This document shows, piece by piece, positions 1,773 to 20,962 of a DNA stretch of 64,000 nt. Below the pieces are notes generated by a model, which saw only the letters and a program-made list of their open reading frames with translations, searched no databases and was not told the origin of the DNA. The stretch lies in NCBI RefSeq assembly GCF_988242995.1, contig NZ_OZ547043.1. One strand, given 5' to 3'. How positions within the stretch are numbered: position 1 is the stretch's first letter; every line of letters begins with the position of its first letter. The position numbers and the translations under genes are program-made.

Positions 1773-3023
1773 TCAAGCTAAACCAATAAAGAACCCGGCA
1801 ATGGTCGCGCTCATCAGGTTGGAAAGCGTTGCTGCTGCCAGCGCCCGTAAACCAAGCTGGGCGATTTCCGGAGCACGTTTTGGCGAAATAGCCGAAAATG
1901 CCCCAACGACAACACCGATAGAACCAAAGTTAGCAAAACCACAAAGCGCAAAGGAGATAATCGCAATGGTTTTCACTTCCAGCGTGCCGCCCGTTTGCAG
2001 GTATGGGGAGAAACTCAGGTAAGCGACAAATTCGTTAATCGCCAGTTTCTGCCCAATCAGGCTACCCGCAAGGTTGGCATCACTCCAGTCCACACCCATG
2101 ATCCACGCCAGCGGTGCCAGCACATAGCCAAAAATACTTTCCAGAGAGGCATTGGCGAAACCAAACCAGCCGCCAATTCCGCCGATAATGCCGTTGATCA
2201 GCGCAATAATTGCGACAAACGCCATTACCACCGTCGCTACACCAGCGGCGATTTTCAACCCGGTCATTGCCCCTGTAGCGGCGGCTTCAATAATGCTTTT
2301 TGGCGGCGTTTCGCTGAACGACAGATTTTCAAATGTGACCTGCGAAGGCTCGGTTGCCGGGCTAAGAATACGTGCAAACAAAATACCACCAGGGATCGCC
2401 ATCAGCGATGCCGCTAACAGGTAGTCAATTGGTACGCCCATTCCGGCATAACCAATCATCATCGAACCGGCAATGGACGCCATCCCGCTACAAATTGCCG
2501 TAAATAGCTCGTTGCGATTCATGCGATCGATAAACGGTTTTACGATCGCCGGGATCTCATTTTGCCCGAGGAAAATAGTGGTAACCGCAACAAAAGATTC
2601 GATTTTGCTGATGTTGAGGGCTTTCTGAAAAATACTGCCAAGAATGCGGATTAGCAGCCCCATCACGCCAATGTAGTACAGCAGGCTGATGAGCGCAGTG
2701 ACGAAGATAATCGCCGGGAGTACGCGAAAGGCGAAGATAAAGCCCGCGCCATCAAACAGGACATCCATTTTCGGCCCGACCAATGAACCAAAAATAAAGG
2801 CACTACCGGCATCACTGTAAGACATCACTTTATGAACGCCTAATGCCGCCTGCTCTACCGCCCATTTTCCTGGTGGAAAATAGAGCATGATGCCGCCAAT
2901 GGCGATTTGTAGCAGCAGCGCGGCTCCAACCGTGCGCAAACTGATGCTCTTTTTATTCACTGACAACAAAAATGCTATTGCCAGTAACACCACCATCCCC
3001 ACAACACTTCTCATTATATCCAT
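1773..3023 (-). CDS. psuT: Pseudouridine/nucleoside transporter (NupC family)
   Basis: 416-aa ORF, multi-pass hydrophobic, synteny with psuG/psuK. Confidence 0.85.
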   Translation of the reverse strand: MDIMRSVVGMVVLLAIAFLLSVNKKSISLRTVGAALLLQIAIGGIMLYFPPGKWAVEQAALGVHKVMSYSDAGSAFIFGSLVGPKMDVLFDGAGFIFAFRVLPAIIFVTALISLLYYIGVMGLLIRILGSIFQKALNISKIESFVAVTTIFLGQNEIPAIVKPFIDRMNRNELFTAICSGMASIAGSMMIGYAGMGVPIDYLLAASLMAIPGGILFARILSPATEPSQVTFENLSFSETPPKSIIEAAATGAMTGLKIAAGVATVVMAFVAIIALINGIIGGIGGWFGFANASLESIFGYVLAPLAWIMGVDWSDANLAGSLIGQKLAINEFVAYLSFSPYLQTGGTLEVKTIAIISFALCGFANFGSIGVVVGAFSAISPKRAPEIAQLGLRALAAATLSNLMSATIAGFFIGLA

Positions 3024-3116
3024 AATGATTTTCCCTTCATGCCAGTAAACCCGGCGTCAGCGCCAGGTTTTGGTATGTATGATCAGTACGGGCGACGGCT
3101 TTCTGCCCGTCAGAAA

Positions 3117-4055
3117 TTAACCCGCGAGACGCTGGTATTCTTTGGCAATTTCACTCGCCAGAATGGCGTTGTTGAACACCAGTTGGATGTTGGATTTCAG
3201 GCTGTCACCGCCAGTCAGTTCAGCAACACGAGCCAGCAGGAACGGTGTGCTTTCTTTACCAATAACGCCCTGCTCTTCGGCTTCTGCCACTGCCTGATCA
3301 ATCGCAGCGTTAATGGTCTGTTCCGGCATCGCAAACTGTTCCGGGATCGGGTTCGCTACCACGAGGCCACCGTTCAGCCCGCTTTGCCATTTCACCGCCA
3401 TTGCACGGGCAATTTCGCTGGCGCTGTCGAGACGAATGCTGACGTCAAACGGGCTGGTGCGGCAGAAAAACGCAGGCAGCGCTTTGGTCTGATAGCCAAT
3501 TAGTGGCACACCGAAGGTTTCTAAATATTCTGTTGTTAATCCTAAATCGAGAATAGATTTCGCCCCGGCACAAACAACGGTGACATTAGTATTTGCCAGT
3601 TCTTGCAAATCGGCAGAAATATCGAAGGTATGTTCCGCCCCGCGATGCACACCACCAATTCCCCCGGTGGCAAATACTTTAATTCCGGCAAGCGCCGCAA
3701 TAATCATCGTTGAAGCCACAGTGGTTGCGCCATTTTTTCCGGCGGCAACAACAAAAGGTAAATCGCGACGACTAACTTTGGTCACGTTATGCCCTTCGCG
3801 ACCCAGTAATTCAATTTCTTCTTTGCTTAAACCCACTTTCATCACGCCGCCAATAATGGCGATAGTGGCAGGTACAGCGCCCTGTTTACGAATAGTTTCT
3901 TCAACTTCAATTGCGGTCTGGGCATTTTGTGGGAACGGCATCCCGTGAGAAATAATGGTCGATTCCAGCGCCACAACCGGTTTTTTGTTTTTTAAAGCGT
4001 CCTGCACTTCCGGGGAAATTTGTAATAATTCAGGGGAAATTTTTAATTCAGACAT
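3117..4055 (-). CDS. psuG: Pseudouridine-5-phosphate glycosidase
   Basis: 312-aa ORF; synteny yeiN. Confidence 0.85.
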   Translation of the reverse strand: MSELKISPELLQISPEVQDALKNKKPVVALESTIISHGMPFPQNAQTAIEVEETIRKQGAVPATIAIIGGVMKVGLSKEEIELLGREGHNVTKVSRRDLPFVVAAGKNGATTVASTMIIAALAGIKVFATGGIGGVHRGAEHTFDISADLQELANTNVTVVCAGAKSILDLGLTTEYLETFGVPLIGYQTKALPAFFCRTSPFDVSIRLDSASEIARAMAVKWQSGLNGGLVVANPIPEQFAMPEQTINAAIDQAVAEAEEQGVIGKESTPFLLARVAELTGGDSLKSNIQLVFNNAILASEIAKEYQRLAG

Positions 4056-4984
4056 TCTGCGTTCTCCACTAACGATATAACGTTGGCAATCGATAAATCG
4101 GGGTTATTGGTGTATTCACAGGAGAGCGCCATTGACGAACATCCCTGTGCGAAACGAACAGATTCGGCAAACGGCATTCCGTCTACCCAACACGAAGCAA
4201 GTCCCGCCATCATGGCATCGCCCGCTCCGGTAACATTAATGACATTGGTTTTGATCGGCGCAGACCAACCATTTTCACCGCTGATATCACTGTAATAAAC
4301 GCCGTCGCCGCCCATGCTCAATACCAGTCGGTTCAGGCCATGTTGATGGAACCAGGCAGCAACTATTGCCACATCTTCACGCCCTGACAAAGCAATCCCA
4401 CTCAGGGTTTCCGCTTCAAGGCGGTTTGGCTTCAGGGTGTGGATCTGATTTAGACGGTCGCGCACTTTGACACATTTCCATGCCGAAACCGGATCGACAA
4501 ATACGGGTACGTTGGCGGCATTATCCAGAATCCATGCCAGTGCCTCTTCACTGATATTACAGTCCGCGACAATGACCTTTGCCCTCTGAATAAATTCACA
4601 GTGCTGTGCGAGATATTCAGCTGTAATAGCGTTGCTAATATTCATGTCATTTATAGCAACCAGCATTTCACCGGTATTATCGAGTAATGATAAATAGCTC
4701 GACGTATTTTCTCCCGGCACAATCAGGCATTTATCGACATAAACGCCAGATTGATTGGTTTGCGTTAGCAGCGATTGACCATAAAAATCACTGCCTACTG
4801 CGCTCAGTAGCCAGGCTTTGTTACCCAGCAACGCCAGGTTTTGTGCAATATTTCGCCCGACTCCACCAGGCGTAAATTTTATTTTACCTGGATTTGAATC
4901 CGCATAATTTAATGATTCATGTGAATATCCGGCGATATCAATATTCGCCGAACCTATAATTACGACATAATCCTTTTCGCGCAT
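4043..4984 (-). CDS. psuK: Pseudouridine kinase (PfkB family)
   Basis: 313-aa ORF with ribokinase-family GAGD motif; overlaps psuG by 13 nt. Confidence 0.85.
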   Translation of the reverse strand: MREKDYVVIIGSANIDIAGYSHESLNYADSNPGKIKFTPGGVGRNIAQNLALLGNKAWLLSAVGSDFYGQSLLTQTNQSGVYVDKCLIVPGENTSSYLSLLDNTGEMLVAINDMNISNAITAEYLAQHCEFIQRAKVIVADCNISEEALAWILDNAANVPVFVDPVSAWKCVKVRDRLNQIHTLKPNRLEAETLSGIALSGREDVAIVAAWFHQHGLNRLVLSMGGDGVYYSDISGENGWSAPIKTNVINVTGAGDAMMAGLASCWVDGMPFAESVRFAQGCSSMALSCEYTNNPDLSIANVISLVENAECLN

Positions 4985-5051
4985 AGCACGTCCTCTGGTA
5001 AAAAATTACCAACCCTGTCAATCCACAAGAATATAGATACTGCAAAGACGG

Positions 5052-5087
5052 TTTAAACATGTGTTCATATTTAAACATGTGCTCATA
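5052..5087. repeat. Tandem 18-bp direct repeat tttaaacatgtgYtcata x2 in psuK upstream region
   Basis: Seen directly in sequence; 17/18 identity between copies. Confidence 0.6.
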
Positions 5088-5366
5088 GTATGCATGTTTT
5101 ACGTAAAGTAAATTACCGCCAGAGAGGCAAAATGGGCAGATTTGAGCAGGCTCACAAAACGCGATTAAATGCCTGAATTATAAAAACGGGGAATTTGTGA
5201 CGGGATGCACAGAACAGGAACAATAAAAAAGGGCAGAAATTAATCTGCCCTTGAGGAAATAACCTTAGTGTTTGATGAAGGTTTCAGGTTTCTACTAAAA
5301 GATAAAACCATTTAAATTCATAAAATTACATTCACAAACCGGTCATTCTCTTTGCGCGCATCAAAT

Positions 5367-5395
5367 GTTACAGGGCAGGAAATTTCTGCCCTGTA
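5367..5395 (-). terminator. Rho-independent terminator downstream of fruA
   Basis: Perfect inverted repeat acagggcag..ctgccctgt just past the fruA stop. Confidence 0.7.
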
Positions 5396-5407
5396 ACACA
5401 CCTTTTA

Positions 5408-7099
5408 TTACGCTGCTTTCGCTACTGCGTCCACTTCCGGACGTTTCAGGAAGGCATAGGCCAGACCCGCCACCAGCGTACCGGCAATAATGGCTACCAG
5501 GTAACCCAGTACCGGCGTAATAGCGCCAGGGATCAGCAGAACAAACAGACCACCGTGCGGTGCCATCAGTTTCGCACCAATCGCCATTGAGATTGCGCCA
5601 GTCAGCGCCCCACCCACGATACAGCACGGCAGCACACGCATCGGATCACGAGCAGCAAACGGAATTGCACCTTCCGAAATGAAGCACAGTCCCAATACCA
5701 GAGCGGCTTTGCCACCTTCCTGCTGCGCTTTGTCGAATTTGCGACGCGCCACCATTGTTGCCAGGCCCATTGCCAGCGGTGGCACCATACCTGCCGCCAT
5801 AATCGCCGCCATCGGGCCATAGGTTTGAGTACTCAGCAGACCCACACCGAATGCGTACGCTGCTTTGTTTACCGGACCGCCCATGTCAGTACACATCATG
5901 CCACCGAGGATCGCCCCCAGCAGAACCGCATTCGCAGTCCCCATGGTCTGCAGCCAGTGAGTCAACCCTTCGAGAATGCCAGCAACCGGTTTACCGATCA
6001 GGTAGATCATCGCCAGACCGACCACCAGACTGGAAATTAGCGGAATGATCAGAATCGGTTTCAGCGCCTCCATACTCTGTGGCAGTTTCAATTGCGTACT
6101 GATTAACTTCGCAATGTAACCAGCCAGGAAGCCCGCAATAATACCGCCAATGAAGCCAGAACCAGTGCTGACCGCCAGCATACCGCCAATCAGACCCGGC
6201 GTGAGACCCGGACGATCGGCAATGGAGAAGGCAATATAACCTGCCAGTACCGGCACCATCAGCGCAAAGGCTGAACCACCACCAATCTGCATCAGCGCCG
6301 CTGCCAACGTACCCGGCTCTTTAAACGCTTCGATACCAAAAGCAAAAGAAAGCGCGATACACAGACCACCTGCAACGACCATCGGCAGCATGTAAGAGAC
6401 GCCCGTCAGCAAGTGACGATAAGCGCCTGCACTCTCTTTCTTACCTTCAGTGGTCGCCGTTTGAGCTTTGCCCGCCGGTTCATACGGCGTTGCTTCAGCA
6501 ACCGCTTTATCCAGTTCCTGCGCGGTTTTCTTCAGCGCCAGACCGGTAGAGGTGCGATACATCGGTTTACCAGCAAATTTCGCCAGATCCACTTCAATAT
6601 CTGCCGCCACAATCACCAGATCCGCTGCGGCTACTTCTTCAGGGGTGATTGCATTACCCGCGCCAACCGAACCACGGGTTTCAACTTTCACCCACCAGCC
6701 ACGTTTTTTCGCTTCGGTTTCAATGGCTTCAGCCGCCATAAAGGTGTGTGCTACGCCAGTCGGGCAAGCAGTCACCGCAACTACGCGTTTCGGACCGCTG
6801 GCGGCAACCGGTGCTGTCGCAGCGACCGGCGCAGTGTAAGGTTTTGCATGGCCTTTGGCTTCACTCAGGAACAGCTCAGGGTGCGCAACTGCCCGGGAAA
6901 TATCGCCCAGCCAAACATTTTTACCGTTCAGCGCGCTGTCGTTCGGGATGGAATCACCGAGAACAATCGCCATTTCAGCGTCGTTCGGATTGTCGATGAT
7001 TTCCAGTTTTGCTTTTCGCGCCGCCGCGCCCAGCAGGGTCTTCGCCATATAGGCGCGTGCCTGACCGAGATTAGCGTCAATAATCAGCAGCGTTTTCAT
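5408..7099 (-). CDS. fruA: PTS fructose-specific EIIB'BC component
   Basis: 563-aa ORF; fruBKA operon synteny. Confidence 0.9.
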   Translation of the reverse strand: MKTLLIIDANLGQARAYMAKTLLGAAARKAKLEIIDNPNDAEMAIVLGDSIPNDSALNGKNVWLGDISRAVAHPELFLSEAKGHAKPYTAPVAATAPVAASGPKRVVAVTACPTGVAHTFMAAEAIETEAKKRGWWVKVETRGSVGAGNAITPEEVAAADLVIVAADIEVDLAKFAGKPMYRTSTGLALKKTAQELDKAVAEATPYEPAGKAQTATTEGKKESAGAYRHLLTGVSYMLPMVVAGGLCIALSFAFGIEAFKEPGTLAAALMQIGGGSAFALMVPVLAGYIAFSIADRPGLTPGLIGGMLAVSTGSGFIGGIIAGFLAGYIAKLISTQLKLPQSMEALKPILIIPLISSLVVGLAMIYLIGKPVAGILEGLTHWLQTMGTANAVLLGAILGGMMCTDMGGPVNKAAYAFGVGLLSTQTYGPMAAIMAAGMVPPLAMGLATMVARRKFDKAQQEGGKAALVLGLCFISEGAIPFAARDPMRVLPCCIVGGALTGAISMAIGAKLMAPHGGLFVLLIPGAITPVLGYLVAIIAGTLVAGLAYAFLKRPEVDAVAKAA

Positions 7100-7115: not shown

Positions 7116-8054
7116 TCAGTTAAAAGGTTGTAAGTCGACGCGCGCCATCATTGCGGCCAACTGCGGACGATCGGTAATACCCACATTGCTTTGACTTACC
7201 GCCAGGGCTGCAACAGCTGTCGCCAGACGCAGTGTGTGTTCACTGGATTCACGCATCAGCAAGCCATAAATCAGGCCACCAACCATAGAATCCCCTGCGC
7301 CAACGGTGCTTACGACATCGACTGACGGTGGTTTGGCGATCCATTCGCCGGAGGCATTAACCCAAAGCGCGCCTTCGGCACCCAGTGAAATAACGACATG
7401 CGCGATACCTTGTTCACGCAGCGCATGCGCAGCTTCAATCACATCTTTCATTTCAGGCAGTTTACGGCCCGCCCAGATTTCCAGCTCGCGGCGGTTAGGT
7501 TTCACCAGCCACGGTGCCGCTTTCAAACCTGCCACTAACGCTTCACGGCTACTATCAAAGATAATGCAAGGACACTGACTACGCAGGCGAGTCATCCAGT
7601 CGGTGAACGCTTCCGGGCTGACGCCTGACGGTAAGCTTCCGCTGACACAGACCATATCGAACTGACCGAGCCAGCTCAGAGAATCAGTCACAAAGCGTTC
7701 CCAGTCGGCGGGGGTAACTTCAAAACCCGAGAAGTTGAAGTCGGTCACTTCGCCGTCTTTTTCCGTCAGCTTAACGTTAATTCGGGTGCGCCCCTGTACA
7801 ACCTGGAAACGGTTGGCAATGCCCAGCTCGCTGAACAGTTGCTGAAAACCATCCTGATTGTCTTTACCGAGGAAGCCGCCAACGGTGACATCAATTCCCA
7901 GGTCTTTTAATACTTTGGCCACGTTGATGCCTTTACCCGCCGCATGCAGACCGGTGGTTTTCACCAGGTTCACTTCGCCGCGTTCAATTTCCGGGCAGAA
8001 ACCAACAAGGTCATAAGCCGGATTAAGGGTGATAGTAGCAACACGTCTGCTCAT
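7116..8054 (-). CDS. fruK: 1-phosphofructokinase
   Basis: 312-aa ORF, PfkB family; synteny. Confidence 0.9.
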   Translation of the reverse strand: MSRRVATITLNPAYDLVGFCPEIERGEVNLVKTTGLHAAGKGINVAKVLKDLGIDVTVGGFLGKDNQDGFQQLFSELGIANRFQVVQGRTRINVKLTEKDGEVTDFNFSGFEVTPADWERFVTDSLSWLGQFDMVCVSGSLPSGVSPEAFTDWMTRLRSQCPCIIFDSSREALVAGLKAAPWLVKPNRRELEIWAGRKLPEMKDVIEAAHALREQGIAHVVISLGAEGALWVNASGEWIAKPPSVDVVSTVGAGDSMVGGLIYGLLMRESSEHTLRLATAVAALAVSQSNVGITDRPQLAAMMARVDLQPFN

Positions 8055-19867: not shown

Positions 19868-20962
19868 ATGGGCGCTTATCTGATTCGCCGTCTGTTGCTG
19901 GTGATCCCAACGTTATGGGCGATTATCACTATCAACTTTTTCATCGTGCAAATTGCGCCTGGCGGTCCGGTCGACCAGGCCATCGCCGCCATTGAGTTTG
20001 GTAATGCCGGAGTATTACCCGGCGCAGGCGGTGAAGGTGTTCGCGCCAGCCATGCGCAAACGGGCGTCGGCAATATCAGCGACAGTAATTACCGTGGCGG
20101 ACGCGGATTAGATCCAGAAGTGATCGCCGAGATCACTCATCGCTACGGTTTCGATAAGCCGATCCACGAACGTTACTTCAAAATGCTCTGGGACTACATC
20201 CGCTTTGATTTTGGCGATAGCCTGTTTCGCAGCGCCTCGGTGCTGACGCTGATTAAAGACAGTCTGCCGGTTTCCATCACCCTCGGATTGTGGAGCACGC
20301 TGATTATCTATCTGGTGTCGATTCCGTTAGGCATTCGCAAAGCTGTTTATAATGGGAGCCGCTTTGACGTCTGGAGTAGCGCATTTATCATCATCGGCTA
20401 CGCCATTCCGGCCTTTTTGTTTGCCATCCTGCTGATTGTCTTCTTCGCGGGCGGCAGCTATTTCGACCTGTTCCCTCTACGCGGCCTGGTTTCCGCTAAC
20501 TTTGATTCGCTGCCGTGGTATCAGAAAATCACCGATTATCTGTGGCATATCACGCTGCCGGTGCTGGCGACAGTGATTGGCGGCTTTGCGGCGCTGACCA
20601 TGCTGACAAAAAACTCATTCCTTGATGAAGTGCGCAAGCAATACGTGGTGACCGCCCGTGCGAAAGGGGTAAGTGAAAAAAATATTCTCTGGAAACATGT
20701 GTTCCGCAACGCCATGCTGCTGGTGATTGCCGGTTTTCCGGCGACGTTTATCAGCATGTTTTTTACCGGCTCGCTGCTGATTGAAGTAATGTTTTCGCTC
20801 AATGGTCTTGGCTTACTGGGCTACGAAGCGACCGTCTCGCGCGATTATCCTGTAATGTTTGGTACTTTGTATATTTTCACCCTGATTGGCCTGCTGCTGA
20901 ATATTGTCAGTGATATCAGCTATACGCTGGTCGATCCGCGTATAGATTTTGAGGGACGTTAA
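19868..20962 (+). CDS. yejB: ABC transporter permease YejB
   Basis: 364-aa ORF; synteny. Confidence 0.85.

Follow-up and report, generated by a model that had tools for sequence, protein, structure and literature searches.

A conserved pair of adjacent 12-bp palindromes upstream of the pseudouridine operon psuKGT of Escherichia coli, with YeiI as candidate repressor

NagC and Mlc of E. coli combine a winged helix with a sugar-kinase-fold sensor and, acting with CRP, repress operons of catabolism or uptake from paired operators. In the trigger-enzyme repressors BirA, NadR and PutA, the enzyme domain senses a pathway metabolite and controls the attached helix-turn-helix (HTH), and PurR of Bacillus subtilis consists of a winged helix and an inactive phosphoribosyltransferase fold. 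Pseudouridine is among the most abundant modified nucleosides and its catabolic enzymes PsuK and PsuG are known. On the control of psuKGT nothing was found in the literature searched, which held neither a psuK regulator nor a function for YeiI (curated RegPrecise and RegulonDB predictions were outside the scope of that search). Set beside these systems, the psuKGT control region analysed here is an ordinary type of element, and it draws attention to a family of regulators not yet characterised.

Two directly adjacent 18-mers, TTTAAACATGTGTTCATA (5052-5069) and TTTAAACATGTGCTCATA (5070-5087), are present in the window, which is the whole stretch of 64,000 nucleotides analysed, and are identical at 17/18 positions. 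TRF gave a period of 18, 2.0 copies and a score of 65 for this repeat, and only five tandem repeats in the 64-kb window, this one included, reached a score of at least 50, which excludes a chance match. The repeat lies 68-103 bp upstream of the ATG of the minus-strand psuK ORF and is separated from the end of fruA (5408) by two terminator-like hairpins. An earlier sequence-only reading had reported a tandem 18-bp direct repeat about 70 bp before psuK and after the fruA terminator, without an assigned regulator site, and each of these points was confirmed; no such site was found in the literature searched or in the RefSeq annotation. The repeat is with high confidence a real, conserved and functional-looking element, and sequence comparison explains it best as two operators side by side rather than as a promoter duplication.

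Each unit holds a 12-bp palindrome, RAACA-YR-TGTTY, and the two palindromes, named box 1 and box 2, have a centre-to-centre distance of 18 bp (Table 1). The ACATGT previously pointed out in each unit is present in both and is incidental, since the box centre is CACATG, CATGTG, CATATG or CACGTG depending on the taxon; the conserved feature is the 12-bp palindrome. C4 and G9 of the motif are invariant in 23/23 boxes from at least 13 taxa, and A5, T10 and T11 are nearly invariant. Scored with a weight matrix, boxes 1 and 2 were by far the top tandem pair in the window (score 31.5). A second exact GAACACATGTTT at 20693-20704 lies within a long coding ORF (19868-20962) and was treated as chance.

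Table 1. Positions of the features of the psuKGT control region in the window.
Feature	Position	Strand	Remark
2 x 18-bp tandem repeat	5052..5087	.	Unit = one box with a 3-bp flank on each side
Box 1, core GAGCACATGTTT	5073..5084	-	Promoter-proximal; centre at ~+1 of the inferred promoter
Box 2, core GAACACATGTTT	5055..5066	-	Centred 18 bp downstream of box 1, at ~+19
Inferred -10 hexamer TACTAT	5085..5090	-	Ends exactly where box 1 starts
Inferred -35 hexamer TTTACT	5107..5112	-	16 nt upstream of TACTAT
CRP-like site TGTGAGCCTGCTCAAA	5141..5156	-	Centre 70 bp upstream of box 1 centre, ~-70.5
Distal CRP-like site TGTGCATCCCGTCACA	5196..5211	-	55 bp upstream of the 5141..5156 site
Intrinsic-terminator-like hairpin with T-run	5229..5252	-	Upstream limit of the psuK control region
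Terminator-like hairpin	5366-5398		Between fruA end and repeat
Leader hairpin UGGUAA-UUUU-UUACCA	4996..5011	-	Immediately 5' of Shine-Dalgarno AGAGGA
Controlled operon	1773..4984	-	psuK 4043-4984, psuG 3117-4055, psuT 1773-3023

An alignment was made of the sequences preceding psuK in Escherichia spp., E. albertii, Citrobacter, Buttiauxella and a Raoultella MAG. The position and core of box 1 are kept in 13 sequences from Escherichia, Citrobacter, Buttiauxella and Raoultella, and also in Pluralibacter and Affinibrenneria. GAACA and TG of box 2 are invariant in the alignment, as is an ATTTAC block, and the CRP-like site is conserved as TTGTGA-N6-TCAnATCT. From this site through box 2, 0 indels were found in 13/13 sequences; the stretch after box 2 is variable in both sequence and length. 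The two-box layout precedes the pseudouridine operons of eleven genera in all, namely Escherichia, Citrobacter, Buttiauxella, Raoultella, Pluralibacter and Affinibrenneria as well as Yersinia, Serratia, Pasteurella, Shewanella and Aliivibrio. All Enterobacterales share with Pasteurella a box spacing of 18 bp, against 19 bp in Shewanella and Aliivibrio. The part of the sequence-only reading that took the repeat for an operator or promoter element is thereby borne out on the operator side, as different genera keep the cores, their 18-bp spacing and the interval to the CRP-like site in the manner of an operator pair.

A weight matrix trained on boxes of the Escherichia/Citrobacter clade only was used to scan nine independent loci of 13-17 kb, with spacings of 17-20 allowed. 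The best tandem pair lay directly upstream of the first psu gene, with a spacing of 18-19, in 7/9 loci (Yersinia, Serratia, Pasteurella, Shewanella, Aliivibrio, Affinibrenneria and Pluralibacter). Shuffled sequences reached the observed tandem score in 0-1 of 300 cases for six of these seven and in 14/300 for Pasteurella. No clear tandem pair was found by the matrix in the Xenorhabdus locus, and the Burkholderiaceae MAG failed the test with a weak tandem pair, its best single box lying at -14 from the start codon. In operons of the fused type, 3 nt separate the end of box 2 from the ATG, which suits a repressor and is incompatible with an upstream activator site.

Several observations were made on these fused loci. 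The called start of HTH-psuK in Yersinia and Serratia (MFKNKQVS...; L015:8001-8027 and L016:8001-8027) places the ATG inside box 1, and every other homologue starts at the second Met (MTSREK); the called start is probably 9 codons too far upstream. The N-terminal MREK of PsuK was considered as a remnant of the fused M(TS)REK and not relied on, the distance from box 2 to the ATG being 70 nt in E. coli versus 3 nt. Yersinia, Serratia and Xenorhabdus carry an extra extended palindrome, ACCAAACA-NN-TGTTTGGT, 225-290 bp upstream of the HTH-psuK start (L015:7749-7768, L016 ~7742-7762 and L017 ~7712-7729) and ~72 bp past a CRP-like site, which could be a distal looping operator or part of a second promoter.

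A -10-like hexamer (TACTAT, TATTAT, TATAAA or TATATA) ends at box 1 or at most 2-3 nt from it in the sequences anchored on box 1. TAYTAT is common to the genera with unfused psuK, and the same place is taken by TATAAA / TATATA in Serratia and Affinibrenneria. In Escherichia, Citrobacter, Pluralibacter, Affinibrenneria, Yersinia and Serratia, box 1 is preceded by TTTACT at a distance of 28-30 nt; Xenorhabdus, without tandem boxes, also has TTTACT ahead of the start codon. Each of the two hexamers of this putative promoter matches the consensus at 4/6 positions, and neither was called by a consensus scan. With this promoter, transcription would start near 5078, inside box 1, and the leader would be ~94 nt long. 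On the evidence of the conserved -35-like and -10-like hexamers, the repeat probably lies on the transcription start and early leader and not upstream of the promoter. The promoter model would explain why the interval between the CRP-like site and box 2 is strictly kept and why the sequence beyond box 2 is free to vary. The consensus scan proposes instead a downstream promoter, TTTAAA-16-TATATT, which is conserved in type A E. coli (defined below) only; if this were the real promoter, the boxes would be centred at ~-37 and ~-55, and activation in E. coli would be possible. Consensus promoter scans of four other loci gave matches no more numerous than in shuffles.

The CRP-like site at ~-70.5 would be close to -71.5, an established class I position. 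Outside Escherichia the distal CRP-like site was not found; it occurs in E. coli types A and B and in E. albertii, and the gap between the two sites, 55 bp in the window, is 52 bp in type B and E. albertii. This spacing recalls the CytR-controlled nucleoside promoters; a conserved CytR half-site between the two CRP-like sites was not seen. Farther upstream, the hairpin at 5229-5252 is conserved also in Buttiauxella. It shares the stem AGGGCAG...CTGCCCT with the hairpin at 5366-5398 (a 12-nt exact complementary match), and in the ~110 nt enclosed by the two, K-12 and the window show several differences. The first of the two is without a good T-run, the second is a strong terminator, and 0 Rfam families were matched.

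Downstream of the boxes, the arms of the leader hairpin change from GGTAA/TTACC in E. coli type A to GGCAA/TTGCC in type B and Citrobacter, a compensatory change read by eye, with a U-G intermediate in E. albertii. RNAalifold recovered no structure for this hairpin from a MAFFT alignment in which the arms were mis-registered. The hairpin may affect translation or mRNA stability. Its reading as a sigma-54 promoter (TGGCAA-N5-TTGCC) was rejected, as E. coli type A no longer has the -12 GC and transcription would begin at the Shine-Dalgarno sequence and ATG. An Rfam scan of 4900-5500 gave best matches of 12.9-22.4 bits against gathering thresholds of 43-100 (E 0.5-0.8). Within the operon, a 21-bp tandem repeat at 4008-4047 (1.9 copies, 89% match) spans the overlap of the psuK end and the psuG start and presumably gives PsuG a short duplicated peptide at its N-terminus.

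The distribution of the repeat within E. coli was analysed with a 60-bp query centred on it in 5,426 complete genomes. The query was matched in 4,219 genomes (type A), of which 4,214 gave full-length and 3,280 identical matches, and the two-copy state was present in 4,214/4,219. K-12 MG1655 is the same as the window over the 190 bp next to psuK and shows 13 differences in the distal 250 bp. The duplication, for which comparison with K-12 and other strains had been suggested as a check, is therefore not strain-specific. The same search found psuK in 4,217 genomes, with an identity of at least 99% in only 19, indicating that the control region, identical over 60 bp in 3,280 genomes, is more uniform than psuK. 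In the two SNP variants examined (strains F070 and O111:H8 7-55), the changed bases were all outside the 12-bp cores.

A diverged haplotype resembling that of E. albertii (type B) is present in the remaining 1,200 genomes, for example in the B2 strains Nissle 1917, NC101 and ATCC 11775; it keeps both boxes, and its PsuK is 88% identical. The type B boxes, GAACATGTGTTT and GAACACGTGCTC, are positioned as in type A, and their units are alike at 13/18 positions. E. coli thus has psuK and its control region in two haplotypes that have diverged deeply (L026:15405-15860 of FDAARGOS_1292 versus 4985-5410 of the window), and these are not distributed along species boundaries, which suggests introgression or old polymorphism.

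Type A E. coli has a unit identity of 17/18, shared only by the closely related E. whittamii and Escherichia sp. E1V33, and the identity is 8-13/18 elsewhere. Unit 2 of type A matches unit 1 of type B at 16/18 positions, versus 13/18 for its positional counterpart, unit 2 of type B. The simplest reading of these identities is that a copy of unit 1 replaced unit 2 in type A with the spacing unchanged, and TCTAAT, which follows box 2 in other taxa, would have been lost from type A through the same replacement. A recent doubling is not supported: the two-site layout is ancient, and only the near-identical flanks of the K-12-type haplotype are derived. In strain UC4316 (GCF_057005375.1; NZ_CM168047.1, L022:1434-1560), the only one examined of five partial matches, an exact 18-bp deletion has reduced the two units to one, indicating that the repeat can still recombine. 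UC4316 is a lambda-Red-engineered derivative of STEC UC4224; PMC13340028 describes the strain, not its 18-bp collapse.

Every psu locus with the two-box layout, like all nine loci scanned, encodes a protein with HTH_24 and PfkB domains, either as the fused first gene of the operon (HTH-PsuK) or as a neighbour (YeiI). The HTH-PfkB gene is the first of HTH-psuK/psuG(/psuT) in Yersinia, Serratia, Xenorhabdus, Pasteurella, Shewanella, Aliivibrio and the Burkholderiaceae MAG, and a convergent yeiI directly follows psuKGT in Citrobacter, Buttiauxella, Pluralibacter and Affinibrenneria. In E. coli, psuKGT is separated from yeiI by yeiL, rihB and nupX, which are absent from those four genera; yeiL is intact in the window, to which its pseudogene annotation in strain CFSAN018748 does not apply. 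E. coli YeiI (b2160) is a putative sugar kinase in the 2026 RefSeq record and is referred to as a protein of unknown function in recent papers. It matches Pfam HTH_24 at residues 1-48 (E = 1.7e-11), followed by PfkB. Its AlphaFold model (pLDDT 90.8) consists of three helices and a wing and then a PfkB fold, which in the model superposes on E. coli PsuK with a TM of 0.96. PDB matches begin at YeiI residue ~54; no solved structure covering the YeiI HTH and no characterised or solved wHTH-PfkB member was found.

Identity to E. coli PsuK is 53-59% for the fused proteins of Yersinia, Serratia, Xenorhabdus and Pasteurella, 41-45% for those of Shewanella and Aliivibrio, and 38% for E. coli YeiI. The recognition helix ISRSxVAxHIMxL is nearly invariant across the HTH-PfkB family, matching the invariant DNA core of the boxes. 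Asn143 and Lys170 are key for pseudouridine affinity and Ser30 for the substrate-induced conformational change (PMC9061257); all three are kept in YeiI and all other family members. The catalytic motifs NXXE and GAGD are both kept in PsuK and the fused forms, and in the YeiI clade the Asn of NXXE is replaced by T/S and GAGD by GADD or GADE. YeiI would accordingly combine a DNA-binding domain with a pseudouridine-kinase copy that has become disabled. The weight-matrix scan found no comparable boxes upstream of nfo-yeiI, nupX, rihB and yeiL in K-12, and the nfo-yeiI upstream region, having no matching box, gives no sign that yeiI would be autoregulated in E. coli.

The yeiI gene was found in 5,422/5,426 genomes as two allele classes, one of at least 95% identity in 3,362 genomes and one of ~81% nucleotide identity in 2,060. 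Proteins of the two classes (L014:3701-4789 of K-12 versus L025:9001-10089) are 86% identical, yet residues 297-362 are identical, which gives yeiI the appearance of a recombination mosaic. The recognition helix does not differ between the classes. The ~81% class outnumbers the 1,200 type B genomes, and one strain examined pairs an ~81% yeiI with a K-12-type psuK.

We consider it fairly probable that the boxes are YeiI operators placed on the start of a CRP-assisted promoter, with pseudouridine relieving the repression. For its parts, the domain make-up of YeiI and the association of the motif with HTH-PfkB genes lead us to propose with moderate confidence that YeiI binds the boxes, and relief by pseudouridine is plausible from the retained substrate residues. 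YeiI dimers would sit with their N-terminal winged helix-turn-helix on each 12-bp palindrome. The boxes would directly follow the weak promoter TTTACT-16-TACTAT and cover ~+1 and ~+19, and CRP-cAMP at the ~-70.5 site would aid RNA polymerase. With both boxes occupied, YeiI would block initiation or early elongation. Pseudouridine, or possibly its 5'-phosphate, would bind the kinase-like domain, alter the dimer and free the DNA, such that psuKGT would be made only with the substrate present and better carbon sources absent. One point against this model is that, at a spacing of 18 bp, the two dimers would face different sides of the helix, an uncommon arrangement for cooperative binding.

The ancestral form may have been a fused HTH-PsuK as the first gene of the operon, an arrangement that Yersinia, Serratia, Pasteurella, Shewanella and Aliivibrio retain. 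The fused form would have split, in the Escherichia/Citrobacter lineage, into an enzyme-only PsuK and a regulator-only YeiI, and in most E. coli unit 2 would later have been overwritten by the unit 1 copy, giving the near-perfect repeat. More tentatively, and with a little less than even confidence, we propose that wHTH-PfkB proteins are metabolite-sensing regulators derived from pseudouridine kinase, in which a dual enzyme and repressor was duplicated into PsuK and a dead sensor-repressor, YeiI. In most Gammaproteobacteria examined, the first enzyme of the pathway would then be the repressor of its own operon, with DNA binding coupled to substrate binding or turnover, and the catalytically dead YeiI would still be reading the ancestral two-box operator.

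The boxes could alternatively be operators of another protein (YeiL, CytR with CRP, or an unlinked factor) with YeiI uninvolved, which we regard as unlikely. [quoted passage not shown] They are moreover kept in the Citrobacter, Buttiauxella, Pluralibacter and Affinibrenneria loci without yeiL, rihB and nupX, and YeiL was rejected as the binder because the boxes persist where yeiL is absent. CytR-controlled nucleoside promoters have two CRP sites ~53 bp apart, with the CytR operator, TGCAA / GTTGCATT repeats, between them. The Escherichia CRP-like pair is similarly 52-55 bp apart, but its second site is confined to Escherichia, the pair lies upstream of the boxes instead of flanking them, and the half-site TGCAA is not conserved in or beside the boxes, CATGCAT of E. 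coli being CACGCTT in Citrobacter. The motifs of CytR, ArgR, NadR, LacI-type regulators, KdgR and FabR were rejected for mismatches in core, spacing or gene context. The motif also accompanies HTH-PfkB genes into Pasteurellaceae, Vibrionaceae and Shewanella, which argues against this alternative; gene neighbourhood is correlative, and an unlinked factor could be the reader of the motif.

That the repeat acts as RNA, through a leader hairpin affecting stability, termination or translation, is very unlikely in our estimate. The boxes are transcribed if the proposed start is right, the repeat of the window folds into an 11-bp hairpin (GUUUAAAUAUG/CAUGUUUAAAC; loop AACA, in the minus-strand transcript of 5055-5084), and the 110-nt leader folds better than shuffles (z = -2.86). 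The 11-bp hairpin, however, needs the near-identical units of type A and cannot be formed by type B or other genera, a 5-bp arm with a 2-nt centre is unable to fold alone, and an Rfam match is absent. C4 and G9 are fixed in all 23 boxes without compensatory changes, which is the signature of protein-DNA recognition and not of a helix. The 11-bp hairpin may be a side effect of homogenisation, with some effect of its own in K-12-type strains. We see hardly any chance that the repeat is a functionless product of neutral slippage kept by descent. Its 17/18 identity and perfect adjacency resemble replication slippage, unit 2 of type A resembles a unit 1 copy, and UC4316 has collapsed to one copy by an exact 18-bp deletion. 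Against this, the boxes stay 18-19 bp apart in eleven genera even at a unit identity of 8-13/18, all but five of the type A genomes retain two copies, the SNPs of F070 and O111:H8 7-55 spare the cores, and the region is more uniform than the adjoining coding sequence.

An anonymous repeat has thereby become a defined 12-bp motif with a candidate regulator, YeiI, a likely effector and a promoter model. If the proposal is true, a function would be assigned to the E. coli y-gene yeiI, and a new family of enzyme-derived regulators would extend across Gammaproteobacteria with at least one Betaproteobacterial member, providing a clean natural case of trigger-enzyme subfunctionalisation. A pseudouridine-responsive switch would also be of practical interest, given the engineering of E. 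coli for pseudouridine production. If YeiI is not the binder, the boxes still form a strongly conserved regulatory site, one that some other factor would have to read.

By analogy, the psuK element would function as operator pairs ordinarily do in catabolic promoters assisted by CRP. The E. coli ROK repressors NagC and Mlc are like the proposed YeiI in logic, and true kinase paralogues exist; their sensor fold, however, is ASKHA/ROK, whereas that of YeiI is the ribokinase (PfkB) fold, with Pfam HTH_24 and PfkB and not ROK. NagC operators are 23 bp long, far apart and joined by DNA looping, in contrast to the 12-bp palindromes of psuK, 18 bp apart. The fused HTH-PsuK, with its catalytic motifs all kept, may be both enzyme and regulator like BirA, and YeiI with its degenerate motifs resembles B. 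subtilis PurR, although BirA, NadR, PutA and PurR differ from wHTH-PfkB proteins in folds, ligands and operator architectures. A lac-type control region would share with psuK a class I CRP site at a face-aligned distance upstream (-61.5 in lac, ~-70.5 inferred for psuK) and a repressor site covering +1 to +30, the psuK positions again being those of the proposed promoter. The lac region, however, has one 21-bp operator with distant auxiliaries where psuK has two short adjacent palindromes, and the lac repressor belongs to the LacI family whereas the proposed psuK repressor does not. The ARG boxes of ArgR are also paired 18-bp units, each an imperfect palindrome, and the psuK units match 13-14/18 of the ARG-box consensus. 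ARG boxes, however, are 2-3 bp apart with a period of 20-21 and a core of TGAAT-N4-ATTCA, whereas psuK units abut with a period of 18-19 in all taxa and a core of AACA-NN-TGTT, and arginine genes are not linked to them.
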